Shown here: positions 1,303-33,486 of the stretch, one piece after another | How the letters are laid out: each line of letters starts with the position of its first letter | How positions within the stretch are numbered: the first letter of the stretch is position 1 | Virus record (IMG/VR): IMGVR_UViG_3300045988_122505 | Coordinates: 1-39,305 of that record | Strand: one strand, 5' to 3' | DNA length: 39,305 bases | Source of the DNA: a virus | The notes under the pieces: generated by a model | What the model was told of the DNA's origin: nothing | Seen by the model: the letters and a program-made list of their open reading frames with translations, nothing else | Databases searched by the model: none | Made by a program: the position numbers and the translations under genes

Positions 1303-1303
1303 T

Positions 1304-1829: not shown

Positions 1830-2077
1830 TGGTAGGTCTCCGGTCTTGGCGGTGCGAGCAGTGCGGCGATCGCGTAGCTGGCGAGGCTGGTGGCGAGCGC
1901 CGCGATGGTCAGTGCGGTGTGGATGGCGAGCCACGTGATTGGTGTCCACTGGTGGAGTGCCTGTCCGATGATCGCCCTGATGACGGCGTGCGGGATGAGC
2001 AGCAGCGCGAGGAGGGTGAACAGCGTGGCCATGGCGTCTCCGAGCCGGTCGGCGAGGTGGCTGATGGTCTTTCTCAC
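1826..2077 (-). CDS. Small membrane protein (about 83 aa; alternative ATG at 2032)
   Basis: Two hydrophobic helices (LFTLLALLLIPHAVI, LAIHTALTIAALATSLASYAIAALL). GTG at 2077 forms a GTGA overlap with the exonuclease stop. Confidence 0.5.
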   Translation of the reverse strand: MRKTISHLADRLGDAMATLFTLLALLLIPHAVIRAIIGQALHQWTPITWLAIHTALTIAALATSLASYAIAALLAPPRPETYQ

Positions 2078-3040: not shown

Positions 3041-3233
3041 AACGCACCACCTCCTGCATCAGACCGTCAACCAACACCAAACACGAAGTGCAATTGGCCC
3101 TCAACCCGGCCGCCATCGCCACGATGCCGTCATCCGCCCTGCCGCCGGCGAGCGCTCGCAGTTCGATTGTGCTGGCGGTCTGGGCGGTGTCGGTGAGGAG
3201 TTGGGCGAGTTTGTCGAGTTGTTCCCTGGTCAT
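3033..3233 (-). CDS. Hypothetical protein (66 aa)
   Basis: ATG at 3233 forms an ATGA overlap with the ParB-like stop and follows GAGGAGAA. The rest of the 328-aa track ORF is an alternate frame of the ParB-like gene. Confidence 0.5.
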   Translation of the reverse strand: MTREQLDKLAQLLTDTAQTASTIELRALAGGRADDGIVAMAAGLRANCTSCLVLVDGLMQEVVRCE

Positions 3234-5619: not shown

Positions 5620-5641
5620 CTCTTCTTCTCCTTCCTGTGGT

Positions 5642-6019
5642 TCAGTCGATCTCGCCGGTGTCCGGATCGACGGTCGCCTCCACGTCGCCATCGTCCATGT
5701 CGAGACTGCGGCGCAGGTCGTCGATGAGGATCATCTGCCGTGACGAGGCGGGTTTCGCGCACATGCTCTCCATGGCCAGACCGGCGTCCAGGATGCGCTG
5801 GGCGAGGTCGGCGCAGTCGTACACGACCTCGGTGATGGCGTGCATGCCGCCCCACTTGTCGATGTGCTCCTTTTTGGTCTTGGTGTCCATGCATGCGCGG
5901 CATGCCTTGAGCACGACGGCCGCGGCCTTGGTGACCTGCTGCGTCTTGCCGATGAGGTCGATGAGCAGGTCCGGTGTGGCTTCCTGCGGGATGAGCGCCT
6001 GCTGTTCTGTGGCTTTCAT
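5642..6019 (-). CDS. Hypothetical protein (125 aa)
   Basis: Clean ORF in the operon; no motif recognised. Confidence 0.55.
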   Translation of the reverse strand: MKATEQQALIPQEATPDLLIDLIGKTQQVTKAAAVVLKACRACMDTKTKKEHIDKWGGMHAITEVVYDCADLAQRILDAGLAMESMCAKPASSRQMILIDDLRRSLDMDDGDVEATVDPDTGEID

Positions 6020-6151
6020 TGATGCTCCTTGTCCTTAAAAGTCCGGCTCGCCGTCGGCCTTGCCGAATTCTCCGAATGATGACTGGCCGTCTGTCGGCGC
6101 GCTCCACGGATCATCCGCAGGCGGAGCCGGTTGCGCGGGCTGTTGCGTCTG

Positions 6152-6607
6152 CTACGGCTGTTGGCTCCAGCCGCCGGCGCCGGTGTTGACGGTCGTCGGC
6201 CGTGGAGAGGCGGGGTTGCCGTAGACGGGGCCGTCCTGGCGGCTGATGCGGTGGACCTGCGCCGTCGCGTACCGGAGCGATGGGCCGAGCTCGTCGACCT
6301 GCAGCTCCACGACGGTGCGGTTCGAGCCGTCCTGCGCCTGATACGAGCGCTGCTGGAGTCTGCCCTGGGCGATGACGCGCATGCCCTTGGCTAAGGAGCG
6401 GGCGCAATGCTGCCCGAATTCGTTCCAGGCGGAGCATCGCATGAAGAGTGTCGAACCGTCCTCGTATTGGCCGGTCTGCTTGTTGAAGTTGCGCGGCGTG
6501 TTGGCGATGGTGAAGCTGGCGACCTGCGCGCCCTGGCTGGTGGTCCTGATCTCCGGATCCGAGGTGAGGTTGCCGATGATGGTGATGACGGTCTCTCCGA
6601 TGGCCAT
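6152..6607 (-). CDS. ssb: Single-stranded DNA-binding protein (OB fold), 151 aa as terminated; an in-frame extension to 6035 encodes the missing acidic tip
   Basis: MAIGETVITIIGNLTSDPEIRTTSQGAQVASFTIA... is a canonical SSB N-terminus. The ORF stops at TAG 6154-6152. The next 38 in-frame codons end in ...ADGEPDF then TAA (6037-6035). Confidence 0.85.
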   Translation of the reverse strand: MAIGETVITIIGNLTSDPEIRTTSQGAQVASFTIANTPRNFNKQTGQYEDGSTLFMRCSAWNEFGQHCARSLAKGMRVIAQGRLQQRSYQAQDGSNRTVVELQVDELGPSLRYATAQVHRISRQDGPVYGNPASPRPTTVNTGAGGWSQQP

Positions 6608-6608
6608 G

Positions 6609-6893
6609 TCAGGCTCCCTTCACGTATCCGGCTGGCTCCGGGCCGAGCTGGCTGGGATCCTTGGCCTTCCATGCGCATTTCGCGCGGAGGCATCCGGCCT
6701 CGCGGTCGATGATGATGTCTCCGAAGCGCGCCGGAGCGACCAGCGTGAGATTCCAGCTGCGGTCGCGGTTGAGCGCGGATACGGTCTCGTACAATTCGCT
6801 GATGAGCTCTGCCGCCGTCATGCCGATGCTGGTCGGCATGAGTGGCCATTCGAACCACCGCTCGCCTTCCGGCCTGGCTGCATTGCTTGGCAT
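6609..6893 (-). CDS. Hypothetical protein (94 aa)
   Basis: ATG at 6893 is preceded by AAAGGAGG. Confidence 0.55.
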   Translation of the reverse strand: MPSNAARPEGERWFEWPLMPTSIGMTAAELISELYETVSALNRDRSWNLTLVAPARFGDIIIDREAGCLRAKCAWKAKDPSQLGPEPAGYVKGA

Positions 6894-6926
6894 CGTGTGC
6901 CTCCTTTGGGATTGGATTGGATGTCG

Positions 6927-7016
6927 TGCCGGAGCGCGGAATCGAACCGCGCATCCATCCGCCGGCGCTGTCGGAGCGCCGATCCATGGCACCCGCATCC
7001 TGTCGCGGGCTCCGGC
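6927..7016 (-). tRNA. tRNA-like element, best fold is class II tRNA-Ser(GGA), 90 nt
   Basis: Read on the minus strand, there is a perfect 7-bp acceptor stem (GCCGGAG/CTCCGGC) and a 5-bp T stem with a TTCGATT loop. There is also a 3-bp D stem with AGG in its loop, and a 5-bp anticodon stem with loop AT-GGA-TC (anticodon at 6985-6983). The variable region is about 24 nt. Atypical features are C8/C9 and a pyrimidine at position 37. Confidence 0.5.
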
Positions 7017-7156
7017 GGGACGGACGGGAGGAGAAGAAGAAGATGACCCGTCCGGACGGTTTTAGCGTCTTTCCCTTGACGGTTGGGTGGCTCCCGCATG
7101 GACGCGCATGACGAGACACGTCCATGCCGCAATGTGAGCGGAGCCATCCAAGTCCT

Positions 7157-7366
7157 TCACTTCTGCTGCTCCAGCCATCGCATGACGCGGGGATCCGAGA
7201 AGATGCGGCACGTGACGACGGCCGCGGGGATGAGCACCGCGATCGGCGCGGCGATGAGGTGTTCGATGGGATGCGTGCACGCCGGTGTGCAGTACAGCAC
7301 CCAGATGGCGGCGATCCAGATGGCGGCGACGAGCTGGCAGAGGATGGCGTGTGCGAGCTTGGTCAT
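7157..7366 (-). CDS. Small membrane protein (69 aa)
   Basis: ATG at 7366 follows GAGGAGGA. Two hydrophobic helices. Confidence 0.55.
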   Translation of the reverse strand: MTKLAHAILCQLVAAIWIAAIWVLYCTPACTHPIEHLIAAPIAVLIPAAVVTCRIFSDPRVMRWLEQQK

Positions 7367-7569
7367 GATTCCTCCTCGTCCATCTCGCGCAGCAGACGGC
7401 CGATGCTGATCTGCAGCGATTCGAGCGCTGCGCGGCTGATGGTCACTCCGGCGAGGTGGCCTTCGTCGGTGATGATGCTGATTCGCGCGGCCTTGACGTC
7501 GGCTCCGCACTTGTGGTCGCGGATGACCATGACGGCGGAGTGGTCTTTCGGCTTGGATTCCTTGCGCAT
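7363..7569 (-). CDS. Hypothetical protein (68 aa)
   Basis: ATG at 7569 follows TAAGGAGG. Confidence 0.55.
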   Translation of the reverse strand: MRKESKPKDHSAVMVIRDHKCGADVKAARISIITDEGHLAGVTISRAALESLQISIGRLLREMDEEES

Positions 7570-7579
7570 GTTTGCCTCC

Positions 7580-7861
7580 TTAGCGCCGGCGCGTCCCGGC
7601 GTTGGCATCGAATTCTTCAATGGATGCGACGGACACCATGACCTTGCCGTGGTATCCGCTTGGCTGGCGCATCTTGATCCGTACCGCTCTCGCCCATTTG
7701 CGGAGGGTCTTCTTGTCGACGCCGCCGAGCATCGCGCTGGCCTGTTTGAGACTGACCCAGCGTGGCGCGTATGCCGTCTGCCGGACGGCTTCCTTCGCGA
7801 TTTCATGGGCGAGCGCGACGGGGTCGAGGAGTGGCTGGTCGATGGTGGTTGATTCCTGCAT
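7580..7861 (-). CDS. HTH DNA-binding protein, excisionase/MerR-type fold (93 aa)
   Basis: WVSLKQASAMLGGVDKKTLRKWARAV is a helix-turn-helix signature. ATG at 7861. Confidence 0.5.
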   Translation of the reverse strand: MQESTTIDQPLLDPVALAHEIAKEAVRQTAYAPRWVSLKQASAMLGGVDKKTLRKWARAVRIKMRQPSGYHGKVMVSVASIEEFDANAGTRRR

Positions 7862-7874
7862 GGCGCGTCCCTTC

Positions 7875-8129
7875 TCAGGCGACGTCGGCGAGCGCCGGCA
7901 TCTTGATTTCGAATCGGTCGGCGAGGAAGTCGATTGGTTTGTAGCCGGTGTTGGCGGCGAAGGCGTCGATTTCGCCGAGTTTGAGTTCGACGGTGCCGTT
8001 GATGCGGCGGCTGGCCATGTCGACTGATTGGTGCCAGACTTCAGCCACTTTGGCGACCGGGATGTTCTGAGCGGCCATGACCGCACGAATCCTCGCCGAT
8101 GCCATGTCGTTGATGTTTCCGTATGTCAT
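7875..8129 (-). CDS. Cro-like XRE-family HTH regulator (84 aa), first gene of the leftward early operon
   Basis: ATG at 8129 follows AAGGAGGAAAC. HTH-like segment IPVAKVAEVWHQSVDMASRRINGT. It diverges from the plus-strand repressor. Confidence 0.6.
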   Translation of the reverse strand: MTYGNINDMASARIRAVMAAQNIPVAKVAEVWHQSVDMASRRINGTVELKLGEIDAFAANTGYKPIDFLADRFEIKMPALADVA

Positions 8130-8156
8130 GTTTCCTCCTTGACAGACCACATTATG

Positions 8157-8233
8157 CGCGAAATTGCGCGCACTGTCAAATCAAAACACGCGCATTTCGT
8201 TTCACCCGCTCGCGCGGCCGCGAAATTGCGCGC
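8157..8233. promoter_or_regulatory. Genetic-switch region with repeated operator-like sites
   Basis: An exact 15-bp direct repeat CGCGAAATTGCGCGC occurs at 8157-8171 and 8219-8233. A degenerate inverted copy (CGCGCATTTCG) lies at 8189-8199. TTGACA is at 8139-8144 and TATAAT at 8234-8239. Confidence 0.6.
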
Positions 8234-8237
8234 TATA

Positions 8238-8486
8238 ATGAAAGATGTGGGTAGCAAAAAACTAGAAGTAAGCCCATTCGGTCTGCAGGTGAGCAAGGCC
8301 ATAAGATCCGAAATGGGAATCCACAGAATGTCGGGTAGGGAACTTGCGAAAACAATAGGAAGAGGTGAGACATATGTGAGGCAGCGAGTCGCAGATGAAA
8401 AGGAATGGGCGCTCAGCGACATTTCGAAGATCTGCGAAGCGTGGGATATGAGCCCGGAAGAGCTCATATCGAAAGCCGCGCAGTAA
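8238..8486 (+). CDS. CI-like XRE-family HTH repressor (82 aa)
   Basis: FGLQVSKAIRSEMGIHRMSGRELAKTIGRGETYVRQRV is an XRE HTH. The gene is divergent from the Cro-like gene. There is no SD, and TATAAT overlaps the ATG, so the transcript may be leaderless and the start is uncertain (GTG at 8247 is an alternative). Confidence 0.6.
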   Translation: MKDVGSKKLEVSPFGLQVSKAIRSEMGIHRMSGRELAKTIGRGETYVRQRVADEKEWALSDISKICEAWDMSPEELISKAAQ

Positions 8487-8494
8487 ATGACACG

Positions 8495-8531
8495 CCCCTG
8501 CCGCGTCATTGCGGCAGGGGTTCTTCTTTCC
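8495..8531 (+). terminator. Rho-independent terminator after the repressor gene
   Basis: 10-bp GC stem CCCCTGCCGC/GCGGCAGGGG (8495-8504 / 8511-8520) followed by TTCTTCTTTCC. Confidence 0.75.
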
Positions 8532-8574
8532 TTGACGCTTCAGTGAGTGCGCGCCGGAGGAGGCGTAGACTTTC

Positions 8575-9213
8575 ATGAAAAAGAAGGAGAAGAAGATGAG
8601 AATCACTCGAAAAGCAATCGTCGCCACACTCGCCGTCATGCTGCCGGTCGCGTTGATGGGAGGATGCGGCAATCAAGACGCGTCCAGCCAATCGGCGAGC
8701 GCTGACAGTCAGACGGAATCACAGGATACGGAAACCGATTCGCAGGATTCCGATAGTGGTGACGACGGTACTCCGCTTGCGGATGGATTGTCTGGATCGT
8801 GCGAAGGTGACGATCCGCGATTGCCGAACGTGAAGCTCGACACTAACGCCGGGTATCTCGGTGTGGAGATACCGGGAAACGACCAGATCAAGCCGGATGG
8901 ATTTTATTCATATGATCTGATGCTCACCAATGAAAACGGCGACTCCTGGATGGTGCAGCTATCCGATTACGTGTCGTCCGGTGAAACGAACCGCAGCGTC
9001 TTCAACATGCAGACGAACAAGAATCTGAATTATCCAGGCTGGAGCAATTCGGATGATGAGTCTACATTCTCCACGTCCATCCCAGACACGGCGATGCGCG
9101 GAACGTCGATGGACTGGCAGATGACGCTCAATATTGACGGCAACGACGTGGCCATAAGAAATATCGCTGATTCTCTGAAAACCGTTCTGTTTATTGGCTT
9201 TTTATATGCCTGA
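8575..9213 (+). CDS. Secreted lipoprotein, moron / candidate superinfection-exclusion factor (212 aa; more likely start at ATG 8596)
   Basis: MRITRKAIVATLAVMLPVALMGGCGNQ is a signal peptide plus lipobox. AAGGAG lies 6 nt before the ATG at 8596. The mature N-terminus is Ser/Asp/Gln-rich. The GC content is visibly lower than in the flanks. Confidence 0.7.
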   Translation: MKKKEKKMRITRKAIVATLAVMLPVALMGGCGNQDASSQSASADSQTESQDTETDSQDSDSGDDGTPLADGLSGSCEGDDPRLPNVKLDTNAGYLGVEIPGNDQIKPDGFYSYDLMLTNENGDSWMVQLSDYVSSGETNRSVFNMQTNKNLNYPGWSNSDDESTFSTSIPDTAMRGTSMDWQMTLNIDGNDVAIRNIADSLKTVLFIGFLYA

Positions 9214-9405
9214 GTGATGATTTACCACTCAGGCTACCACCTCTACACTGTCTCAAATATATGAAAATCGGCTATTTTTGACGTCGTGAAGCAGCTAGAG
9301 CGGTGAAGGCAGGTCCGTAATCGACTCCATCTCTGTCCATTTCCAACCCTACATGGTGTCGAGCCTATCAATCCGCTGTTTTTCTTATGTTTTTCGTGTT
9401 TCGGC

Positions 9406-9434
9406 TTGCATTACTTTATTTACTGCGCTAATAT
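9406..9434 (+). promoter_or_regulatory. Near-consensus sigma70-type promoter
   Basis: TTGCAT (9406-9411), a 17-nt spacer, then TAATAT (9429-9434). It sits in an AT-rich tract 28 nt upstream of the ATG at 9462. Confidence 0.55.
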
Positions 9435-9461
9435 AGTTTATATCAAGGAAAGGAGGTGAAC

Positions 9462-9581
9462 ATGACACCATCGGAGATAATCACCAGCATCTCGCTTCTC
9501 GTCGCGAGCCTCGCGGCCCTCATCAAAGCAGTGACCGGACTCGTCAAGGAGATGAGACGGAAACCGAAGAAAAGGAAGTGA
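9462..9581 (+). CDS. 39-aa hydrophobic/basic mini-protein, type I toxin- or holin-like (MTPSEIITSISLLVASLAALIKAVTGLVKEMRRKPKKRK)
   Basis: Strong RBS AAGGAAAGGAGG lies 6 nt upstream. One predicted TM helix is followed by a Lys/Arg tail. The ORF has its own promoter and is followed by a hairpin. Confidence 0.55.
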   Translation: MTPSEIITSISLLVASLAALIKAVTGLVKEMRRKPKKRK

Positions 9582-9585
9582 GCAA

Positions 9586-9616
9586 GGGTTCCGGCCAGAC
9601 CTAGGGGCCGGAACCC
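9586..9616 (+). terminator. Perfect 11-bp stem hairpin downstream of the mini-protein
   Basis: GGGTTCCGGCC (9586-9596) pairs with GGCCGGAACCC (9606-9616). There is no clear U-tract, so it may be a terminator or a processing/antisense element. Confidence 0.4.
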
Positions 9617-9629
9617 CATATCTCCGATT

Positions 9630-9785
9630 ATGCCATGGGACATCATGAGAACGGAATCGATAGTCAGCGCGGTGTTCGCGCTCGGAACCGCCGCCAGCGC
9701 ATGGTTCGGCTGGCCGTTCGCGCTCACCGCCGGATGCGCCGTCGTCAGCGCCGTCTTCGCGCTCATCGCCGGAAGGAAGGACTGA
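9630..9785 (+). CDS. Small membrane protein (51 aa; alternative start 9645)
   Basis: Two hydrophobic segments (IVSAVFALGTAASAWFGWPFAL, CAVVSAVFALIAG). The stop lies 1 nt before the next ATG. The RBS is weak. Confidence 0.4.
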   Translation: MPWDIMRTESIVSAVFALGTAASAWFGWPFALTAGCAVVSAVFALIAGRKD

Positions 9786-9786
9786 C

Positions 9787-9993
9787 ATGACCATCAAATA
9801 CCTGAGCGTCACCGACGTGTCCAAGCGCCTCGGCATCAGCACCGCCGCCGTCAGCGCCTACAAGCTCCCCCAACCGGACGCCACCATCGGACGCACGCGC
9901 GGCTGGCTGCCAGAGACCATCGACCGGTGGAACACTCAGCGTCCCGGCCGAGGCGTCGGCGGCGGACGCCCACGCAAAAACAAGACTGAATAA
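9787..9993 (+). CDS. Excisionase-like / AlpA-MerR-type HTH DNA-binding protein (68 aa)
   Basis: YLSVTDVSKRLGISTAAVSAY...WLPETIDRWN is typical of small phage Xis-type HTH proteins. GGAAGGAAGGA RBS. Confidence 0.55.
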   Translation: MTIKYLSVTDVSKRLGISTAAVSAYKLPQPDATIGRTRGWLPETIDRWNTQRPGRGVGGGRPRKNKTE

Positions 9994-12232: not shown

Positions 12233-12356
12233 TCCATGGGTCGAGGCGCTTCTGGACTTCGTCTCTCAGCGACTTGGGGACGGAGTCGATGGTGCGCGCG
12301 CCGGAGCGGACGAGGTTGACGTAGATGGCGACCATGGCCTGCTGCAATGCTGTCAT
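12213..12356 (-). CDS. XkdX-like small protein (47 aa)
   Basis: ATG at 12356 follows GGAAAGGAG. AIYVNLVRSGARTIDSVPKSLRDEV resembles small proteins found between tail-fibre and lysis genes. Confidence 0.45.
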   Translation of the reverse strand: MTALQQAMVAIYVNLVRSGARTIDSVPKSLRDEVQKRLDPWSADDVA

Positions 12357-12359
12357 CGC

Positions 12360-12719
12360 TCACTCCTTTCCTTCGGTGCCGGCGGAAACCGCGGTGGCCT
12401 GCGCCTCGTAGAGGGCGGCGATGGCGGTGGCGTTGTCGACGGTCTGCTGCTCGAGCTGGGCGATGCGCTCCTTGTCATCCATCGACTCGATCTCGGCCGA
12501 GCGGATGAGGCCGTCGAACTGCTCGACAGCCTCCTGTTCGGTCAGGTCACGGCACAGGTAGGTCTCCTGCGCCGTGTATTCGGTGGACTCGGTGCCGTCG
12601 GCGCCGAGGCGCTGGACCTGCCTGATGTCCTCGCGGAGCCAGATGTCGGCAAGGCCGTCGCCCCGCCGGAAGTATTCGACCTTTTCTAGCGGAGTGGCGC
12701 TGGTGACGAGTTTGCTCAT
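12360..12719 (-). CDS. Acidic hypothetical protein (119 aa), translationally coupled to the reverse transcriptase
   Basis: ATG 12719-12717 overlaps the RT stop TGA 12718-12716 (ATGA). AAGGAAGGA RBS. The sequence is Glu/Asp-rich and not Avd-like by eye. Confidence 0.6.
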   Translation of the reverse strand: MSKLVTSATPLEKVEYFRRGDGLADIWLREDIRQVQRLGADGTESTEYTAQETYLCRDLTEQEAVEQFDGLIRSAEIESMDDKERIAQLEQQTVDNATAIAALYEAQATAVSAGTEGKE

Positions 12720-13819
12720 CTTTTTTCCTTCCTTGGTTGTTGGTTGGCGCGGGCCAGCGTCCGCTTGGCCATGCGCATTGTCTCGTCCACCTGCCGGCGG
12801 CGGCGCACGAGGACGCTGTCGGAGTGGATGAAGTATCCGTAGTAGCTGGCGCATCTGCGCGCCAATGTCAGGTTCCTTGGATGTCGGCGGAATCTGGCGA
12901 AGGTCCTTCCGGCACGGAGGAATATTCCCGTCCGGATGTTCGTCCGTCCGGGACGGAACACATATCCGACCATGTCTATCGGCTCGACGCCGACGTGCTT
13001 GATGTTCCATTCCGGGTGCATTTCGAGCTTGAGCCGGTCATGGGCGAAGGCGGTGATGCGTCTGGCCGCGATCGACAGGTCACGCTTCGACCGGCCGAGC
13101 AGCAGGATGTCGTCCATGTAGAGGAGGACGTGCGTGACGAGGCGTCTCGTCGTGATGGTGCCGTCCCTGTGCCGTCGGGTCTTGGTGAGTCCATGCTCGC
13201 AGAAGTGCCAGATGGCCGACAGGTAGTAGTTCGCCAGATACTGGCTGAGGTAGCTTCCGATGTTCAGGCCGTTGGCTCCGGCGTAGGAGTCGATGAGGTG
13301 GAAGACGAGGCGCAGGAGCGTCGCGTCCCCGACGTCGCGTGAGAGCATCGCCTTGAGCGTCAGACGGTCGATCGATGGATAGCATTTGCGCACGTCGAGT
13401 TTGACGAAGACCCTGCTCGACGGTTCGCGGATCCATTTGCGTATGGCGCGCCTCGCGTCGTTGGTGCCACGGTTCGGGATGCTGGCGGTCTGCCATCGCC
13501 CTATCTTCGCTTCGAAGAGTGGCATGAGGGCGAGCACTGCGACGTGGTCGAGGATCTGCTGCTCGATGGCCTCTCGTCCGATGACGCGGTGTTTCCCGCT
13601 GATGGGTTCGACGCGGTTGAAGTAGCGGATGCGTGGGTGGTCGAATCTGCCGGTCTCGATCTGGCCGGCGAGCTTGTCGGCGATGGCGTCGAGGTCCGGA
13701 TGCCGCTCCAGGAATCTCGCGACGTCGCGTCTTGATGTTTTGCCTTGCAGGTAATGGTCCGTGGCCTTCCTGACGAAGGCCGGTGTGCCGCAGTGCGTGT
13801 GGCGGCAGTATGTCTTCAA
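12716..13819 (-). CDS. DGR-type reverse transcriptase (367 aa)
   Basis: The catalytic motif is LLYMDDILLLG. The DGR-typical motif is NIGSYLSQYLANYYL. SGKHRVIG and DVRKCYPSI resemble RT motifs 1-3. The gene sits 175 nt downstream of the TR on the same strand. TTG start at 13819 is uncertain. Confidence 0.9.
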   Translation of the reverse strand: MKTYCRHTHCGTPAFVRKATDHYLQGKTSRRDVARFLERHPDLDAIADKLAGQIETGRFDHPRIRYFNRVEPISGKHRVIGREAIEQQILDHVAVLALMPLFEAKIGRWQTASIPNRGTNDARRAIRKWIREPSSRVFVKLDVRKCYPSIDRLTLKAMLSRDVGDATLLRLVFHLIDSYAGANGLNIGSYLSQYLANYYLSAIWHFCEHGLTKTRRHRDGTITTRRLVTHVLLYMDDILLLGRSKRDLSIAARRITAFAHDRLKLEMHPEWNIKHVGVEPIDMVGYVFRPGRTNIRTGIFLRAGRTFARFRRHPRNLTLARRCASYYGYFIHSDSVLVRRRRQVDETMRMAKRTLARANQQPRKEKR

Positions 13820-13994
13820 TTTGAGCTGTTCCTATCTGGACTTTGCGCGGCTGTCGATGTGGCTGGAGGGGTTCCTCTACCGGCCGCGTGCTCGTGTTTC
13901 ATTTTCGGATCTGGCCGTGGCGTGCCGTCTGGCCCAGATCGTGGCCGACGGTAATCGGAGTGTTCTGATGTTTTCGACAGGATTGTCCAGGTGT

Positions 13995-14096
13995 GCGGCC
14001 GCCGATGTTCCACCTGCGGTTCGTCAGGTCCCTGTTCAGGTTCGCGTGGAACGCGCCGCAGTTCGAGCCATCCCTGAGATTGCCGAACCGGTGCAC
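13995..14096 (-). repeat. DGR template repeat (TR), 102 bp
   Basis: 90/102 identical to 14239-14340. All 12 differences are at plus-strand T (adenine on the transcribed minus strand). Read in the VR frame it carries AAC/AAT/AGG codons (VHRFGNLRDGSNCGAFHANLNRDLTNRRWNIGGR). Confidence 0.92.
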
Positions 14097-14160
14097 GACG
14101 CGAAGGACGGTAGGCGCGCCACTCCGAGTCCCATGTGTTGTTTTGTCTGCGGTGGGTTAT

Positions 14161-14180
14161 GAGGGGGCTTGCGCCCCCTC
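14161..14180 (-). promoter_or_regulatory. GC-rich 8-bp hairpin with 4-nt loop downstream of VR (candidate DGR target-recognition hairpin and/or terminator)
   Basis: GAGGGGGC (14161-14168) pairs with GCCCCCTC (14173-14180). The loop reads GCAA on the minus strand (GNRA-type). It lies 29 nt after the target gene stop. Confidence 0.6.
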
Positions 14181-14208
14181 GCTACGCTCACCCCTCACCG
14201 CTCTTGGC

Positions 14209-15789
14209 TCACGCCTTCGAGCGGCCGAGCGCGGATAGGCGGCCGCCGATGTTCCACCAGCGGCCCGTCAGGTCCCAGTGCAGGTCCGCGCGGAACGCGC
14301 CGCAGTGCGAGCCATCCCAGAGAGAGCCGAACCGGCGCACCTGCCGGAGTCCCTGCGTCTGGACTGGGTTGGCGCAGACGGCGTCGGTGAGGCCGGTGCT
14401 GGAGGTGGCGCCGAGGCCGGTGGGCAGGAACACGCGTCCGTCGACGACGTTGAAGTCCTCGGCGAAGCGGGAGCTCGCATCGTTGGTCTTGTCGCGGGTC
14501 GGGAACTCGCCGACGAGCGCGTAATTGTCGGTGCTGGTCTTGGATGCCTTGACGATGTCGTGCACGAGGTAGAGGGCCGTATGGCCGATACCGTCGGCGA
14601 CATAGGCTTTGACGATGGCGTCCGCGTCGATCTCGTAGATGCCGTTGCCGCGTTCGATGCCCTGCAGGCGGACGGGCTGCCATCCGGCGTGGTCGGTCTG
14701 CGGGCGTCCGTCTCCCCTGCCGCGGATGGAGTCGGTGGCTCCGGTCTTCCATGGCATGGTGGACACGAAGGTGGCCGTGGTGGTGGTGATGGCGGCGCCG
14801 TCGATGTTGAGGGCGACGGTCGTCGCATCGATGGTGGTCTTGGATGTGACGGTGCGGGCTTCAGCCACGGAGTGGTTGGCCGCGTTGTTGCGTTCCTTGT
14901 CGGTGCCGATGTTGATGGTGGATCCGATGAGGATGCCGTCGGCGGTGTCCTTGGAGACGATGACGCGTTTGGCGTTGGATTCAGCCTTGGTGACGGCGCC
15001 CTGTGCGGTGTAGTTCTCGAAGCATCCGCCGAGCGCGGTCTCCATGTCCTTGGTGGCGAATTTCAGCATGAGCATGAGCTGGAAGTAGAAGATGTCTGGC
15101 TGGCATTGGCCGGCGTATCCCTTGCCTTTCTTCTGGGCGAGGGTGATCTGGTCGTTCTGGCAGGCGAAGCCGGCATCTATCTTCTGTCCGCTCCAGGAGC
15201 GCGGAATGCCGCCGGACAGGCTCGCACCGTATTTCGCGTAGAGCAGGCAGGGACGTTCGGTGCCGTCTGGCAGGAGCAGGCCTGGCATCGGTTCGAAGCC
15301 GTCGTACTGCTCGTCGCTGTAAAGCAATTCGATGTGGTTGTCGTCGCCGTCGACGCGGAAGTATCCGGGCGCGACCATGACGAAAACATCGCCGTTGGAT
15401 CCATCGCGGCGGAATCGGCTGTCGCCCTCGATGGCGGTGATGTGCGGCACGCCGGACTCGTCCACGGTGGCGTTCACATCACGCCACTGGAAGGCGTTGA
15501 GGTATGCGTAGTCGTCGCGTCCCGCGTTCGCTGCGGTGGACACCGTCACGGACAAGTTGGCGTTGTCGTGGGTCTTCACGCCGGTGGGGACGCGTGAGAA
15601 GGAGTAGCGCGGGAACTGCACGCCGTAGATGCGGCCGGAGCGGTGCTGCGTGTAGTATTCTCGCACGTTCGCGTATTCGTGCTTCGCGTCGTCGTAATGG
15701 AAGGTGGTGCCGTCCACGTCGGTCTCGCGCAGGGCGCGCATGACCTTCGCGAAATCGCGCAGGCGGATGAACTTGTCCGGATTTGCCAT
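14209..15789 (-). CDS. DGR target protein (526 aa) with C-terminal variable, C-type-lectin-fold-like region; probable receptor-binding/tail-fibre protein
   Basis: ATG at 15789 follows AAAGGA. The gene lies in the tail-fibre region. The VR covers residues 483-516, and the G-x-x-W-x-G-S-x-C-G-x-F-R...N-I-G-G-R pattern is typical of DGR variable proteins. Confidence 0.85.
   Translation of the reverse strand: MANPDKFIRLRDFAKVMRALRETDVDGTTFHYDDAKHEYANVREYYTQHRSGRIYGVQFPRYSFSRVPTGVKTHDNANLSVTVSTAANAGRDDYAYLNAFQWRDVNATVDESGVPHITAIEGDSRFRRDGSNGDVFVMVAPGYFRVDGDDNHIELLYSDEQYDGFEPMPGLLLPDGTERPCLLYAKYGASLSGGIPRSWSGQKIDAGFACQNDQITLAQKKGKGYAGQCQPDIFYFQLMLMLKFATKDMETALGGCFENYTAQGAVTKAESNAKRVIVSKDTADGILIGSTINIGTDKERNNAANHSVAEARTVTSKTTIDATTVALNIDGAAITTTTATFVSTMPWKTGATDSIRGRGDGRPQTDHAGWQPVRLQGIERGNGIYEIDADAIVKAYVADGIGHTALYLVHDIVKASKTSTDNYALVGEFPTRDKTNDASSRFAEDFNVVDGRVFLPTGLGATSSTGLTDAVCANPVQTQGLRQVRRFGSLWDGSHCGAFRADLHWDLTGRWWNIGGRLSALGRSKA
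14239..14340 (-). repeat. DGR variable repeat (VR), 102 bp, inside the last 44 codons of the target gene
   Basis: It encodes VRRFGSLWDGSHCGAFRADLHWDLTGRWWNIGGR. Substitutions relative to TR occur only at TR adenines. Confidence 0.92.
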
Positions 15790-15802
15790 TTTCTGTCCTT
15801 TC

Positions 15803-16204
15803 TCAGTTACGGATGGCGGCCAACGCCCAATCCACGTCGGACTGGTCGATGTCAGCCAACGGATTGCCGGTGGTGGTTGGTGTGAGGGTTGTTGGGTCGA
15901 CGGTGACGAGGTCGGCGAAGCTGACTGGATTGGCGCTGTCTGGCACGTCGAAGGTGACCCTGAAGTTGTGTGGCGATTTATCGTTGCCGACGGTAAGTTG
16001 GTATGCCCAGTCGGTGCCTGTTGGTGGTAGGTTCAGCGTGATGGCTCCATGCTGGTCGAGCGTGGTCTTGAGCGGTTCGTTGACAATGATTTTCTTGGTG
16101 CTGGTGGTGAATCGTTTGGTTGGTGTGATGATGATCGGATCGTTGGCCAGGTCGACGATGCCGTTGGCGTCGAGTTTGCCGATGTCGATTTTGACTTGTG
16201 TCAT
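15803..16204 (-). CDS. Hypothetical tail-region protein (133 aa)
   Basis: Clean ORF immediately upstream of the DGR target. Thr/Pro-rich and beta-rich in appearance. Confidence 0.55.
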   Translation of the reverse strand: MTQVKIDIGKLDANGIVDLANDPIIITPTKRFTTSTKKIIVNEPLKTTLDQHGAITLNLPPTGTDWAYQLTVGNDKSPHNFRVTFDVPDSANPVSFADLVTVDPTTLTPTTTGNPLADIDQSDVDWALAAIRN

Positions 16205-16307
16205 CTTGTCCTCCTGTCGCTAGTGTTGTGTATTGGAAAAACCCACATCGGCGAGCGCTGTGTTGGTGTTGTCGTGTTTGTGGGTTTTTCGTTGTTGGAA
16301 GGTGTTT

Positions 16308-17183
16308 GTGTTGTTGTTTGGTGTGTTTGTTGATGAGGTTTGGTGGCCATCTTGTGCTGGGTTGCGTGAGTGTACGAGGGTTGGTTATGAGAGTGCTTTG
16401 AGGTGTCATGTTTTGCCTCGGTGGGGTGGTGTTGATTTGGATTCGGTTACGGTGGCGGACATCGAATCATGGTTGGACTCCTTCGCTAAAGCCGGAGCGG
16501 CACGTAAGGCGTGGGCAGTGTTCCGCTCGATACTCCGACTCGCCTACCGGCGCGGCGTCACAGACAATGACGTGACCAGACGTGAAATCCGACTCCCCCA
16601 CTTGCGCCATTACGAGCCGCAGGTACTGACTGCGCCGGAAGTACGACGCCTGTTGAAAGGCTTCTACGGGCACCCATTGGAAGCATGGCTATTGGTGTCC
16701 GTATGCGCGGGACTGCGCCGCTGCGAGTCGGTCGGCTTGGAATGGGCCGACCTGGACTTGAAGCGAGGCACAGTCACCGTCAAACGTTCCGTACAATGGG
16801 TGGCGGGCCATGAGACCGTCACCGAACCGAAGACCGATCTGAGCCGACGAACCGTCGCATTGCCACGGTTCGCGGTCAAACGCTTGGCGGAACTACGCCA
16901 CGGCACGAAGACCGGCCGACTGGTCGGCGGTCTGAACGCGAACCAAGTGGCAAACCACTACCGCAGTTGGTGCAAGCGCATGAAACTGCCATGCGTGCCT
17001 CCACGCAACCTACGCCACACGTTCGGCACGTTGGCAATCAAGGCCGGAACCGACATCAGCGTGGTCGCGCGACAGCTCGGACACTCCGACATCCAAACCA
17101 CCGCCAGATATTATTTGAAGCCTGATCTGAGCGTCCTCAAGGACATGCAGAAAGCATGGCAGAAACTCATATTGACCTGCTGA
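16308..17183 (+). CDS. rin: Tyrosine recombinase, shufflon invertase (Rin-like), about 291 aa; start uncertain (GTG 16302/16308, TTG 16311)
   Basis: GLRRCES (Arg), LRHTFGT (H-x-x-R box) and LGHSDIQTTARYY (catalytic Tyr) are present. GGAAGG is at 16297-16302. The stop lies 5 nt before the first recombination site. It is the only plus-strand gene in the tail module. Confidence 0.8.
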   Translation: MLLFGVFVDEVWWPSCAGLRECTRVGYESALRCHVLPRWGGVDLDSVTVADIESWLDSFAKAGAARKAWAVFRSILRLAYRRGVTDNDVTRREIRLPHLRHYEPQVLTAPEVRRLLKGFYGHPLEAWLLVSVCAGLRRCESVGLEWADLDLKRGTVTVKRSVQWVAGHETVTEPKTDLSRRTVALPRFAVKRLAELRHGTKTGRLVGGLNANQVANHYRSWCKRMKLPCVPPRNLRHTFGTLAIKAGTDISVVARQLGHSDIQTTARYYLKPDLSVLKDMQKAWQKLILTC

Positions 17184-17188
17184 TAGCA

Positions 17189-17199
17189 TTCCGTAACCC
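17189..17199 (+). repeat. Shufflon recombination site a (TTCCGTAACCC)
   Basis: Exact 11-bp core preceded by TAGCA. Confidence 0.8.
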
Positions 17200-17483
17200 A
17201 GCAATGGAAGCCGCCGTATACGAACGACAACCTCACTCTGTGTCGCGTCGGTCGCATCGTCACGGTCAACGGCAACGTCAAGTTCACCGGCAGTGGACAG
17301 CAGAACTACTCGACGGCGAATGAGACCATCCCAGAAGCGTTCCGTCCGCTCGCCGACATGAGCATCATCGCGTTTCCATCCTGCGGTTTCAGCCTGCTTG
17401 TCGAGCGTGACGGGAAGGTGCAGATGCTTGGCGACCCGAAATCCGCCTACTCCACGGCGCACGGCTGTTGGATGGCGAAATAG
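17190..17483 (+). other. Silent RBP C-terminal cassette 1 (97 codons + TAG), promoterless
   Basis: It is open from the TCC-GTA-ACC (S-V-T) codons of site a: SVTQQWKPPYTNDNLTLCRVGRIVTVNGNVKFTGSGQQ...HGCWMAK. Confidence 0.75.
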
Positions 17484-17485
17484 TT

Positions 17486-17496
17486 TTCCGTAACCC
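17486..17496 (+). repeat. Shufflon recombination site b (TTCCGTAACCC)
   Basis: Exact core 2 nt after the cassette 1 stop (TAGTT). Confidence 0.8.
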
Positions 17497-17750
17497 TCCC
17501 ATTTGGCAACGGCAACGGCAACAGTAATGGCGGAATATACCCAATCGGTAAGGTATCTAGCCCAAATGCGATCAAGTCCTTGAATGGCAGAGCCACACTG
17601 TCGTCCGGAACGACAGTGGCGATTCCATTCATCCACCCGTCATACCTGCAACGTTCGGTCCAAGTATCGATTGCACCTGATGGGACAGTCAATCTGCTCG
17701 TTGGTCCTGAAATTACTGTCACAGGTGGAATCGTGGAAATCCATTTTTAA
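17487..17750 (+). other. Silent RBP C-terminal cassette 2 (87 codons + TAA)
   Basis: SVTLPFGNGNGNSNGGIYPIGKV...GGIVEIHF, in the S-V-T frame of site b. Confidence 0.75.
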
Positions 17751-17755
17751 TAGCA

Positions 17756-17766
17756 TTCCGTAACCC
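17756..17766 (+). repeat. Shufflon recombination site c (TTCCGTAACCC)
   Basis: Exact core preceded by TAATAGCA. Confidence 0.8.
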
Positions 17767-18083
17767 AGATGGATGACTGGGTTGTAATCGCGCGCCCTAG
17801 AGGCTATGACGCCTACTGCGTCGCGTCCATGATCTTCAAGCCGAACACGAACACGTCAATAGACATCAAACTGCCGATCGAAGCGGCAAACTGGGATTCA
17901 TACTCCGTCGAATTACAGTTGATGAACAACGATAAAAACAAAGTGCCGTCGTTCAACAACATCTCGATGATTACGAACAGTCATTCGGCAAAAGGATTTC
18001 AGCTTGTCGCATGGAACGCCAGCGGCACGTCGCTGAGCTATCGCATCGCCGTGACTGTCCACGTCTTCGACGCGAAGCAGTAG
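17757..18083 (+). other. Silent RBP C-terminal cassette 3 (108 codons + TAG)
   Basis: SVTQ followed by the 104-aa track ORF 17769..18083 (MDDWVVIARPRGYDAY...), in the S-V-T frame of site c. Confidence 0.75.
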
Positions 18084-18085
18084 TT

Positions 18086-18095
18086 TTCCGTACCC
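18086..18095 (+). repeat. Degenerate shufflon site d (TTCCGTA-CCC, one A missing)
   Basis: It has the same TAGTT prefix as site b but a 1-nt deletion in the core. Only a 24-codon open stretch follows. Confidence 0.55.
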
Positions 18096-18168
18096 ACAGA
18101 CGCTTATCACCTCGCGGCGGTAGCCAGAACGGCGGCTTTTTCGCCACAACGATGACCTATATCGTTGT

Positions 18169-18507
18169 CTAGACGGTCGCAACTGGAAACGATACGCTGC
18201 CAACATGCCATGTGTTTTCAGGAATGGTCGCATCATACGATGTGCGGAAGGAAACTGTGTTTCCCACTGCGTACAGAAAACGATTCTGCATCCGGTCCTC
18301 ATAGGAATTGTCTACGAACATGTTGAAGGCCTCGCAGGTGGCCTGCACGTCCATGCTTGCCAAAGCCACTCCAGTCCACGCCTTATTGCGGAAAGTCCCT
18401 TTGTTGACCCACCGGCAGTAGACGGTCGCCAAGCCATTGACGACGCATCCACTGATTGTGAATTCCGGGTCGGAGGTCAGTTTCGTGAAACGAATCGGGG
18501 TTACGGA
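18169..18507 (-). other. Silent RBP C-terminal cassette 4 (112 codons + TAG), same orientation as the expressed gene
   Basis: SVTPIRFTKLTSDPEFTISGCVVNGLATVYCRWVNKG...SFPVATV, in the S-V-T frame of site e. Confidence 0.7.
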
Positions 18508-18508
18508 A
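18498..18508 (-). repeat. Shufflon recombination site e (TTCCGTAACCC on the minus strand)
   Basis: Exact core 2 nt after the TAG of the expressed RBP gene, in direct orientation relative to site f. Confidence 0.8.
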
Positions 18509-18510
18509 AG

Positions 18511-19293
18511 CTAGCGGATTGGGTATGTGACGGTTCCGGCGCACTGTTGGCTACTGCCTGTCGAACCGAAGTTAGCAATTCGGATGACACCGTTCGCTTG
18601 AACAATCAACATTCGCGCGGTCTGACCGTTGGACACGCAGCACATGCCGTTGGCTTCAACCGGAGGCCAATACTCTCGCGGCAGAACGTACTTGCACTGT
18701 TTCGAATCCCAACTGCCAGCACCAATCGTGCCGCTGAACTTCACGAATATCAACGTTCCGGTTTTAATGACGGTGAACCCTTCGCCGTCGTACAGGGTTA
18801 CGGAATCCCACAAAGCCCCCCTCGGCGTGAACAGGCGCACCGGCGTACCGACCGTGATGCCGTCGAGCGGGATGCGCCACAACGGCATGTATGCGTCAAC
18901 CGCGCCGGACAATATCTTCCCGGACGGAACCTTCGGGTCGGCGGCGGCGGTCGCATTCGGCGAACCCTTCAACACGGTCAATTCCACATTCTCATTACCG
19001 GTCTTGGAATCTCGATGGTAATGCGCGCAGATGATGTCATTGCGTTTCATGCCCTGCGACCCGTTGGAGATCGTCACCGATTCCGCCGCCGTGATATGCC
19101 AGTCCAAGCCTTGTATCGACGCGCAGCCGGTGCCGATCGTCGCCCTGTTGGACGAACTCATAGAGCATTTGAACGCGTCGCCCCAGTCGTACACCACGTC
19201 GGACTTCGAGAACTTGGCCTGATGGATGATCGCCTTGTCCTCGCTTGAGATGTGTGCGACTCCGGCCTTGCCGTCAACCAGTTCGATGGTCAC
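18511..19293 (-). CDS. Receptor-binding/tail-fibre protein with shufflon-exchangeable C-terminus (260 aa: 163-aa constant part + 97-aa cassette)
   Basis: It lies downstream of Tal. Site f marks the junction ...RLFTPRGALWD|SVT|LYDGEGFTVIKTG... Confidence 0.8.
   Translation of the reverse strand: MTIELVDGKAGVAHISSEDKAIIHQAKFSKSDVVYDWGDAFKCSMSSSNRATIGTGCASIQGLDWHITAAESVTISNGSQGMKRNDIICAHYHRDSKTGNENVELTVLKGSPNATAAADPKVPSGKILSGAVDAYMPLWRIPLDGITVGTPVRLFTPRGALWDSVTLYDGEGFTVIKTGTLIFVKFSGTIGAGSWDSKQCKYVLPREYWPPVEANGMCCVSNGQTARMLIVQANGVIRIANFGSTGSSQQCAGTVTYPIR
18795..18805 (-). repeat. Shufflon recombination site f inside the expressed RBP gene (codons D-S-V-T)
   Basis: Exact core. The Ser codon (18804-18802) is codon 164 of the 260-aa ORF. 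Confidence 0.8.
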
Positions 19294-33485: not shown

Positions 33486-33486
33486 G

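Follow-up and report, generated by a model that had tools for sequence, protein, structure and literature searches.

Within the window, as we call the whole 39,305-nucleotide stretch of viral DNA analysed here, two similar direct repeats lie beside a reverse transcriptase (RT) gene, and one of them forms part of a gene for a tail-fibre-like protein. The locus raises the question of whether these elements together constitute a diversity-generating retroelement (DGR), and whether the tail protein is in fact hypervariable. We conclude that the cassette is almost certainly the DGR of a Bifidobacterium phage whose genome of ~39.25 kb is complete and circularly assembled. Its core features are the following:

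12716..13819, minus strand: DGR reverse transcriptase, 367 aa, TTG start, pI 10.8
13995..14096, minus strand: template repeat (TR), 21 adenines, non-coding
14239..14340, minus strand: variable repeat (VR), codons 484–517 of the 526-codon target gene
14209..15789, minus strand: DGR target gene (variable protein), tail-fibre-like, 526 aa, from the ORF listing

A repeat search of the window returned one 102-nt direct repeat pair, corresponding to 13995–14096 and 14239–14340, with the starts 244 nt apart. Base-by-base comparison showed that the TR and VR are identical at 90/102 positions and that 12/12 mismatches (14015, 14020, 14021, 14033, 14036, 14042, 14047, 14063, 14075, 14080, 14081, and 14092) fall on a plus-strand T of the TR, that is, a minus-strand A, with 0/81 of the other TR positions changed. 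The probability of all 12 landing on the 21 T among 102 positions is p = 2.2e-10. Twelve of the 21 minus-strand TR adenines (57%) are altered in the VR, which is close to the ~50% adenine-change density reported per retrohoming event. The homology between the repeats ends abruptly at both flanks, and a TR pattern in which every A is replaced by N has two sites in the window, the TR and VR only, with none expected from shuffles.

The adenines of the TR are also arranged in a distinctive manner with respect to the reading frame of the VR. They are carried by 15 TR codons (five AAC, one AAT, two CAC, three AGG, and one each of GAT, GAC, ACG, and ATC); 11 adenines occupy codon position 1, the other 10 occupy position 2, and position 3 is free of them. 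Because they are confined to positions 1 and 2, no stop codon can be reached in the VR, and the template has a capacity of 4.4e12 DNA variants or 1.26e12 protein variants. The earlier note on this DNA had described the same 102-bp pair from the sequence; each of its 12 mismatch positions and its counts of altered adenines and unaltered other positions were reproduced here, and the YMDD RT that it placed 175 nt downstream of the TR on the same strand fits the ORF at 12716–13819 on the minus strand. Two of its details required adjustment. The 34 VR codons do lie at the C-terminal end of the 526-aa ORF but are not its last, as nine codons (LSALGRSKA) come after them, and the template codons that it listed (AAC, AAT, AGG, and CAC) are all present but share the adenines with GAT, GAC, ACG, and ATC.

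Across relatives of this phage, the TR is constant and the VR alters almost only at positions of TR adenines, and does so at a far higher rate than the remainder of the gene. The TR is identical over 102/102 positions in four related IMG/VR contigs (L001–L004); in L003, nucleotide identity falls to ~89–90% in the RT and target genes, yet the TR is unchanged. Because the L004 contig ends before the VR, this repeat was compared in three of the four, where it differs from the TR at 17, 13, and 12 positions (12 in the window's own VR). These three VRs are all distinct from each other and from that of the window, with a single non-A change. Genomes with RT genes 97.6–99.5% identical at the nucleotide level likewise have unlike VRs. 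In 70 distinct TR/VR pairs obtained from relatives, 896/943 mismatches (95%) are at TR adenines, against a baseline in which A represents 17.8% of the TR bases.

At the protein level, we analysed target-protein clusters of 1355–2400 member sequences and found that the hypervariable columns (residues 485–514) are exactly the A-bearing codons of the TR. Among 45 sampled cluster members, 17 pairs have all 492 non-VR residues the same and differ at 3–13 VR residues. Approximately 1.5% of the VR cells in cluster members hold residues that the template does not allow, mostly at residues 485 and 491. Public data contain thousands of distinct target sequences per 90%-identity cluster, representing population-scale hypervariation of one tail protein for which up to about 1e12 variants are possible. 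An A-biased TR/VR pair is found directly upstream of the RT in seven of nine genome loci (L005, L006, L008, and L010–L013), at RT identities of 26–92%; the exceptions are L007, whose contig ends only 340 nt from the start of the RT, and L009, for which the scan found no TR/VR pair. The tail-protein hypervariation predicted in the earlier note is upheld at the population level, with an invariant TR and a hypervariable VR in contigs and protein clusters alike.

The RT gene lies downstream of the TR in the same orientation, its start 175 nt away, and its product matches Pfam RVT_1 and phrog_1423 (249 bits). The protein contains the YMDD motif as well as IGSYLSQ, which fits the (I/V/L)GxxxSQ pattern of RT domain 4 defined as the DGR RT motif (PMC3521204), and its C-terminus is basic, as described for DGR RTs. 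The top PDB match was 8ub7 (E 1.5e-21), a 328-aa RT that aligns through the very residues that BPP-1 Brt shows in its BLASTP alignment, and LtrA was matched at 8e-8. The nearest annotated phage RTs in GenBank are those of known DGR phages. The scores were 63.5 bits with the group II intron model TIGR04416 (cut-off 300), 27.7 bits with the defence model Drt3a (cut-off 200), and at most 64 bits with the PADLOC RT models. Rfam at gathering thresholds identified no family anywhere in the window, intron RNA included.

These results allow the alternatives to be weighed. An ordinary duplication or gene-conversion tract accompanied by an RT of the group II intron, retron, or defence type would account for the weak matches of the RT to group II intron maturase and DRT models, but these scores are far under the cut-offs and no intron RNA is found by Rfam. 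The mismatch pattern (p about 2e-10) argues against ordinary duplication, and neutral divergence cannot account for the comparative data. We rejected duplication beside an unrelated RT on the basis of the A-only mismatches, the constant TR, and the 896/943 mismatches at A sites, and regard it as extremely improbable. The element could also be a relic, in which mutagenic retrohoming took place in the past of the lineage and the copy in this genome is now dead. This genome is represented by one assembled sequence, and published Bacteroides DGRs span the range from highly active to nearly silent. However, the RT ORF is intact with all its motifs kept, the TR is the same as in relatives, there is zero non-A decay between TR and VR, and close genomes (RT 97.6–99.5%) have unlike VRs, as do protein pairs that differ only inside the VR. 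We consider a dead element unlikely.

The reverse transcriptase of this DGR is predicted to rewrite 15 codons at the tip of the tail protein, and it may do so in this genome at present. Minus-strand transcription would pass through the target gene, TR, spacer, and RT. By analogy with the family, the RT would copy the TR RNA into cDNA with random nucleotides opposite the 21 template adenines, and the VR, at the 3′ end of the tail-protein gene, would be replaced by this cDNA. What singles out the VR as the recipient is probably the G+C-rich end of the repeat together with a GC hairpin downstream of it. We delineated the following elements around the repeats:

14239..14248, minus strand: G+C-only 3′ end of the repeat, 10 nt, CGGCGGCCGC, read from the sequence
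14162..14181, minus strand: GC-rich hairpin/cruciform downstream of the VR, GAGGGGGC-GCAA-GCCCCCTC, 8-bp stem and 4-nt loop, from sequence and fold
13820..13994, minus strand: TR-RT spacer, 175 nt between TR and RT
13925–13951, minus strand: spacer hairpin 1, from covariation
13877–13891, minus strand: spacer conserved block GCACGCGGCCGGTAG
13866–13877, minus strand: spacer hairpin 2, from covariation

The flanks of the TR and VR diverge right after the 10-nt G+C-only run, and the CGGCGGCCGC end of the VR is the putative start of an IMH, as judged from the (GC)14 portion of the IMH in BPP-1. The stem of the hairpin at 14162–14181 is the same in all Bifidobacterium-type loci; in L006, whose RT is 64% identical, the flanks are no longer alike and the loop reads GAAA. 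In the window, the hairpin is located 57 nt past the repeat and its loop is GCAA, both unlike BPP-1, compared with published distances of 4–34 nt and a GRNA consensus. A GC-rich inverted repeat downstream of the VR occurs in only 34% of DGRs. The hairpin was also considered as an intrinsic terminator and rejected, as no T-run comes after it and a terminator scan made no call.

In the DGR RNA, the spacer between TR and RT probably makes up a structured 3′ region. Its conservation of 96.5–100% is above that of the flanking genes, as is that of the TR. In an 11-sequence alignment, 95.8% of cells are paired, whereas slid controls reach 47.6% at most. Compensatory changes were found at six pairs, and the covariation score was reached by 0/500 shuffles. 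The spacer matched no Rfam family.

The target gene is positioned between the tail genes and the lysis genes. Its product matches phrog_17147 and phrog_5302 (“tail protein”), and some source records of its homologues say “tail collar fiber protein.” Homologues are present in B. breve, B. pseudocatenulatum, B. imperatoris, and B. reuteri, that of B. pseudocatenulatum being a close one, and the C-terminal module (~270 aa) forms the C-terminus of proteins in 3034 representative clusters. No Pfam domain was identified in the target, its C-terminal fragments gave nothing meaningful, and in a word-indexed search the C-terminus by itself recovered nothing but fragments of close relatives. The AlphaFold2 model of the full target (44 sequences) had a pLDDT of 39.9, and the AlphaFold model of the C-terminal 180 aa (64 sequences) a pLDDT of 41.0, both values being too low to support a structural comparison.

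A profile of close target homologues (A1) had no PDB match. The C-terminal family profile had a single, marginal match (E 0.0073, 18 bits) to TaqVP (PDB 5VF4), a protein of the Thermus aquaticus DGR with a C-type-lectin fold. Both landmark motifs of the family profile, G-I-x-D-L-x-G-N-V-W-E and the C-terminal VR motif RGGxWxxGxxAGL...W.(I/V)GxR, are colinear with TaqVP in this match. Alignment to Mtd by hhalign gave no real alignment with profile A4, and placed VR on VR with the deeper profile A6 (E 0.014, probability 3%). A C-type-lectin fold for the variable domain is only weakly suggested by these profile matches.

The earlier note had also assigned the locus the mutagenic-retrohoming signature of Bordetella phage BPP-1. 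The assignment holds for the A-specific repeat pair, the invariant TR, and the RT, which is nearest to bRT, but not for the BPP-1 layout, as avd is missing. As in BPP-1 (mtd-avd-TR-brt), a tail protein carries a C-terminal VR, and the TR lies just upstream of the RT on the same strand. Both systems share adenine-specific mutagenesis of AAC-type codons from which a stop codon is impossible, and in both an 8-bp GC hairpin with a 4-nt loop comes after a repeat whose 3′ end is GC-rich. The RT shares 29% identity with Brt (E 2e-26) but is larger by 39 aa and has a basic stretch inserted between motifs 4 and 5. In contrast to BPP-1, the gap between VR and TR is only 142 bp and contains no avd, no similarity between the target and Mtd could be detected beyond the VR, and the host is a Gram-positive actinobacterium (Bifidobacterium).

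As read from the sequence, the cassette has an Avd-less architecture in the order target-VR-TR-RT. There is no ORF between VR and TR that could be avd, and Pfam and NCBIfam searches of the neighbouring small ORFs identified no Avd, HRDC, or MSL genes near the cassette. Ten further small ORFs were negative for Avd, and bAvd, used as a phmmer query on all six frames of the window, gave nothing below E 6. The avd gene is present in about 74% of DGRs and is not universal. Since the Avd-less Architecture A is known and represents 29% of DGRs (Wu et al, 2018; PMC5758913), the missing avd does not exclude the cassette from the DGRs. The gene order is shared with Architecture A1 (target-TR-RT) and “Lineage 3” of the same study, likewise with no recognised accessory gene. 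Faecalibacterium phage FP_Epona and Lactobacillus phage LBR48, which count among these Avd-less DGRs and whose RTs are 27–29% identical to the RT described here, also have a target, TR, RT, and small overlapping ORF, followed by lysis genes. With no Avd, the priming and targeting steps are not simply transferable from BPP-1, and the gene that overlaps the end of the RT gene is of interest in this respect:

12360..12719, minus strand: orfX, small acidic protein, 119 aa, pI 4.3, ATG overlapping the RT stop (ATGA), upstream AAGGAAGGA

We regard orfX as a candidate for one of two roles, either a DGR accessory gene or a tail-module gene. It matches no Pfam family, and its PHROG match is phrog_37768 (function not annotated). 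Its identification as XkdW was dropped for want of Pfam support, and BPP-1 Bbp4 was rejected as a homologue with an orfX HMM score of −0.4. According to the first possibility, which we put forward as tentative, orfX would encode an accessory protein of Avd-less DGRs, an RT partner that replaces or complements Avd. Its ATG shares the ATGA with the RT stop, and in 80/80 and 25/25 informative viral loci a homologue either overlaps the RT stop or comes immediately behind it; the sole match to orfX in 50,697 phage records sits directly behind a DGR RT. A small acidic ORF (87–238 aa, pI 4.0–4.8) starting −58 to +13 nt from the RT stop is present in every RT lineage examined, in a survey that reached an RT identity of 26%. 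The distant lineages with an ORF in this position include L006, L007, L009, L010, L011, L094, and L123–L127, of which L094 and L123–L126 are faecal phage records and L127 is FP_Epona. Hosts in the L007–L013 records are Actinobacteria, Firmicutes, and Verrucomicrobia. Most of these acidic ORFs are detectably homologous; the L007 form, used as a query for related loci, gave no matches. A possible parallel is CH1, a small acidic protein of pI 4.7 found exclusively in DGRs without avd (Wu et al, 2018; PMC5758913).

The tail-module reading draws on the same adjacency. The same records show the target protein co-inherited with the RT over nearly its full length, and the linkage of orfX and RT may thus mirror one shared tail module. 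In FP_Epona, the ORF immediately precedes XkdX, holin, and lysin, as is typical of the transition from tail to lysis genes. A weak match to phrog_1766 (“tail fiber protein”) was seen for the L011 form, and the L009 and L010 forms match DUF4376. In BPP-1, too, a small acidic ORF (Bbp4, pI 4.1) overlaps the stop codon of brt, and avd-TR-brt alone is enough for homing in that phage, which counts against an accessory role of orfX. The RT-coupled acidic ORF and the covarying spacer hairpins are nonetheless concrete candidates for the replacement of Avd. With some doubt, we suggest that the orfX product, which the shared ATGA would couple translationally to the RT, could be the missing accessory subunit of the large Avd-less branch of phage DGRs, act with the spacer hairpins in priming or targeting, and perhaps be related to the sparsely described CH1 class. 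If true, mutagenic retrohoming would have a second mode that is independent of Avd.

DGRs of Bifidobacterium prophages were published earlier (PMC8705816, 2021), and tail-targeting DGRs have been described in 26/286 B. longum prophages (bioRxiv 10.64898/2026.02.18.706556, 2026), so that the kind of system found here is already known. The accessible portions of both reports contain no dissection of the TR/VR, spacer RNA, hairpin, or downstream ORF. A megablast search with positions 12300–16300 against 50,697 phage records returned no match. The cassette provides a clean DGR example from a phage of Bifidobacterium, a key infant-gut genus.

Beside the DGR, the phage carries what its sequence identifies as a Rin shufflon. 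Two unrelated diversification systems would accordingly serve adjacent tail proteins of one phage, which is relevant to the prediction of host range and to phage-based manipulation of bifidobacteria. In the Rin shufflon as published (Mavrich et al, 2018), short asymmetric rix repeats with the core TTCCCTAACCC delimit alternative C-terminal cassettes, with one repeat inside the gene, one at its 3′ end, and others inverted, and the constant N-terminus comprises 168 residues. The corresponding elements in the window are as follows:

16233–17183, plus strand: tyrosine recombinase of the Rin shufflon, beside the receptor-binding-protein gene
17184, 17481, 17751, and 18081, plus strand: rix core TTCCGTAACCC or a one-mismatch variant, from a sequence search
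18496–18513 and 18793–18810, minus strand: rix core TTCCGTAACCC or a one-mismatch variant, inverted, from a sequence search

The arrangement of these repeats agrees with the published description, and inversion itself is predicted from it.

A repeat search of the window returned one 102-nt direct repeat, at 13995–14096 (template repeat, TR) and 14239–14340 (variable repeat, VR), with a spacing of 244 nt. Base-by-base comparison found the two copies identical at 90 of 102 positions, and the 12 mismatch coordinates listed in the earlier note agreed exactly with ours: each corresponds to a plus-strand T of the first copy, that is, to an adenine of the minus strand. The first copy contains 21 such positions, whereas none of its 81 other positions is mismatched, and the probability of all 12 mismatches landing on those 21 positions by chance is 2.2e-10. 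Homology breaks off abruptly at both ends, and the TR pattern with each A replaced by N matches nowhere in the window except these two sites. The same note had placed the VR in the last 34 codons of a 526-aa ORF; the variable codons are indeed near the 3′ end of this ORF but correspond to codons 484–517, with nine more codons following. Because the TR adenines are confined to codon positions 1 and 2, a stop codon cannot arise, and the template has a capacity of 4.4e12 DNA variants and 1.26e12 protein variants. The window's VR carries changes at 12 of the 21 adenines, near the mutational density of ~50% reported per retrohoming event. The repeats are part of the following minus-strand cassette.

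Organisation of the diversity-generating retroelement (DGR) cassette
15789–14209, minus strand: target gene (tail-fibre-like protein), first in minus-strand order
14340–14239, minus strand: VR, inside the target gene
142 nt, minus strand: VR–TR gap, containing a GC hairpin at 14181–14162
14096–13995, minus strand: TR
175 nt, minus strand: spacer between TR and reverse transcriptase (RT)
13819–12716, minus strand: RT
12719–12360, minus strand: orfX (119 aa), its ATG overlapping the RT stop codon as ATGA

The RT hits Pfam RVT_1 as well as PHROG 1423, and among solved structures its nearest relative is 8ub7 (E 1.5e-21), against just 8e-8 for the group II protein LtrA. 8ub7 is a 328-aa RT whose aligned residues are the same as those of BPP-1 Brt; Brt itself is 29% identical to the window RT (E 2e-26). 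The protein features the motifs IGSYLSQ and YMDD plus a basic C-terminus, and IGSYLSQ conforms to (I/V/L)GxxxSQ, the defining motif of DGR RTs (PMC3521204). Models of group II intron and defence RTs scored far under their cut-offs. Relatives of this RT among annotated phage records belong to known DGR phages (BPP-1, FP_Epona, LBR48, crAssphage LMMB and ANMV-1). A TR/VR pair with A-specific mismatches was located directly upstream of the RT in seven of nine genome loci with RTs of 26–92% identity, from Bifidobacterium, Akkermansia, Clostridiales, Agathobacter, Clostridium and Blautia; of the remaining two, the contig of L007 ends a short way upstream of the RT, and L009 yielded no pair by the same scan.

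We also observed a basic insertion of ~15–25 aa, HFCEHGLTKTRRHRDGTITTRRLVTH, between RT motifs 4 and 5 (window 13080–13250, RT residues about 190–225). The RT alignment showed it to be common to the RTs of the window, L005–L010 and L094, a faecal phage record with an orfX-type ORF, but shorter in L011–L013 and missing in BPP-1 Brt; it might contribute nucleic-acid binding where the accessory protein Avd is missing. In L005 (3162–4541), the frame is open from the TR via the spacer into the RT, giving a 459-aa ORF, and likewise in ~ten related viral loci; the window has a stop at 13899 that interrupts this frame. The open frame has probably arisen by chance through high G+C content.

Four related IMG/VR contigs (L001–L004) carry a TR identical to the window's at 102 of 102 positions, including L003, although its RT and target genes are just 89–90% identical at the nucleotide level. 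L004 ends before its VR; the VRs of L001, L002 and L003 differ from the TR at 17, 13 and 12 sites, respectively, against 12 in the window, and these four VRs are all different, with one change in total at a non-A position. Related viral contigs yielded 70 distinct TR/VR pairs with 943 mismatches, of which 896 (95%) fall at TR adenines; adenine accounts for 17.8% of the TR bases. The target protein belongs to 90%-identity clusters of 1355 and 2400 member sequences. Among 45 sampled members, at least four residue types occur at VR columns 485, 489, 491, 492, 495, 500, 502, 504, 508, 509, 511, 513 and 514, which are 13 of the 15 codons with an adenine in the TR; outside the VR, this was the case at residues 34, 35 and 474 only. 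Residue sets permitted by A-to-N changes account for 98.5% of VR cells. In 17 member pairs, all 492 non-VR residues are identical and 3–13 VR residues differ. These sequence comparisons indicate that diversification took place, and recently.

DGRs are well characterised systems. They have been reported before from Bifidobacterium prophages: a 2021 paper interpreted an RT adjoining tail genes as a likely DGR (PMC8705816), and in a 2026 preprint, 26 of the 286 B. longum prophages carried DGRs targeting the tail (bioRxiv 10.64898/2026.02.18.706556). DGRs have been shown to be active in Eggerthella lenta, a related actinobacterium. The window locus is therefore not a new kind of system.

The VR–TR gap contains no ORF, the neighbouring small ORFs have no Pfam or NCBIfam match, and BPP-1 Avd (bAvd) found no match in six frames of the window. 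Judged by this gene content, the cassette is without Avd and fits Architecture A of Wu et al, which comprises 29% of DGRs; “Lineage 3” of the same authors is entirely without avd (PMC5758913). The interpretation of the element as a DGR in the earlier note is thus supported, but its architecture is Avd-less and departs from the BPP-1 layout. Both AlphaFold models of the target protein were too low in confidence to show a lectin fold. Its C-terminal module represents a family of 3034 representative clusters, always C-terminal in the protein, and the sole match of the family profile was TaqVP (5VF4), a solved lectin-fold DGR variable protein from Thermus aquaticus, with a marginal E-value of 0.0073 and both landmark motifs colinear. 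Using hhalign, the window VR aligned weakly on the VR of Mtd, a BPP-1 protein.

At the end of the repeat is CGGCGGCCGC, a run of G and C only, beyond which TR and VR diverge completely. Located 57 nt further on, past the target stop codon, is the hairpin GAGGGGGC-GCAA-GCCCCCTC, which is not followed by a T-run and whose stem is identical across all Bifidobacterium-type loci; L006, with an RT of 64% identity, has a GAAA loop and diverged flanks. This hairpin resembles the BPP-1 target-site hairpin, described as a GC stem of 7–10 bp with a 4-nt GRNA loop at 4–34 nt from the VR, but differs from that description in its GCAA loop and 57-nt distance. The TR–RT spacer is more conserved than the neighbouring genes. 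An 11-sequence alignment revealed two hairpins in it (window 13951–13925 and 13877–13866), 95.8% paired against a maximum of 47.6% in slid controls, with compensatory changes in six pairs and a covariation score that no shuffle attained. The spacer has no Rfam match, and by analogy with that of BPP-1 we infer that it would supply the DGR RNA with its structured 3′ part.

The RT is followed by orfX, which encodes a protein of pI 4.3 without a Pfam family and is preceded by a Shine-Dalgarno-like AAGGAAGGA. A small acidic ORF (87–238 aa, pI 4.0–4.8) begins –58 to +13 nt from the RT stop in every RT lineage examined (L006, L007, L008, L009/L010, L011–L013, MT836575, four more gut phage records, FP_Epona and LBR48), and this position is kept down to 26% RT identity, including in the Faecalibacterium phage FP_Epona. 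Homology is detectable among most of these ORFs. The overlap of the orfX start with the RT stop, together with an RT directly upstream in 80 of 80 viral loci retrieved with orfX and in 25 of 25 informative ones retrieved with the L011 form, would suit an accessory factor of the DGR, and the sole orfX match among 50,697 phage records is right behind a DGR RT. By description, orfX also recalls CH1 of Wu et al, a small, acidic protein class restricted to avd-less DGRs (PMC5758913). However, the target protein is inherited together with it, almost at full length, in the same records, the site is a typical tail-to-lysis position, and some orfX forms match PHROGs annotated as tail fibre protein or bear DUF4376. 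Furthermore, BPP-1 has a small acidic ORF at the same site, Bbp4 (L014:28–276; 82 aa, pI 4.1), which overlaps the brt 3′ end by 20 nt and shows no detectable homology to orfX. We consider an accessory role possible, though less likely than not; orfX could instead be a tail-module protein.

Among the viral loci containing orfX, the RT match is partial (126–192 aa) in L055, L056 and L026, and no TR/VR pair was seen in L053, L055, L056 and L075. Such loci may be decayed DGR cassettes still keeping orfX, which, if so, would bear on the dependence of orfX on the DGR.

A Rin shufflon of the type described by Mavrich et al, 2018 (PMC6109161) adjoins the DGR on its upstream side (window 16233–19293).

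Organisation of the Rin shufflon
16233–17183, plus strand: tyrosine recombinase
17184, 17481, 17751 and 18081 (plus strand), 18496–18513 and 18793–18810 (minus strand): six rix sites, core TTCCGTAACCC or one-mismatch variant
18511–19293, minus strand: receptor-binding-protein gene, with one rix inside near residue 162 and one at the stop codon

The N-terminal part of the receptor-binding protein is constant, and alternative cassettes for its C-terminus lie between rix sites. The phage joins two unrelated diversification systems on adjacent tail proteins. The shufflon is also present in L003, L005 and L006: in L003 (2453–4059), a rin gene with five rix sites is located upstream of the DGR, and the L005 and L006 contigs stop precisely on a rix site (positions 1–11), as would be expected for an assembly interrupted by a segment that actively inverts. 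L001 has the DGR and no rin within 4.8 kb upstream.

The recombinase and receptor-binding-protein genes upstream of the cassette are accompanied by those for minor tail proteins and the tape measure protein, and downstream are a membrane protein, a GH25/CW_7/LysM endolysin and a holin. The window's termini share a 55-bp direct repeat (1–55 and 39251–39305), which marks the sequence as a complete, circularly assembled phage genome, about 39.25 kb (about 39,250 bp) long. Homology identifies the host as Bifidobacterium: the closest RT (92%) was found in a Bifidobacterium MAG, and homologues of the target protein occur in B. pseudocatenulatum, B. breve, B. imperatoris and B. reuteri. Shufflon recombinase aside, no integrase was found among the ORFs scanned, which cover 1–9800 in part. 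The large terminase (region 32832–35703) is encoded in two minus-strand ORFs, for the N-terminal (34585–35703) and C-terminal (32832–33485) halves; the split is not confined to this phage, since the two halves have separate PHROGs families. The ~1.1 kb between them holds two same-strand ORFs, one for a DUF4417 protein (E 4e-64, roughly 33855–34560) and one of 151 aa with a Gly-rich N-terminus (33487–33942). Further minus-strand features are a 541-aa ParB-like protein (3230–4855), an SSB (6152–6607) and a tRNA-Ser(GGA) (6926–7016).
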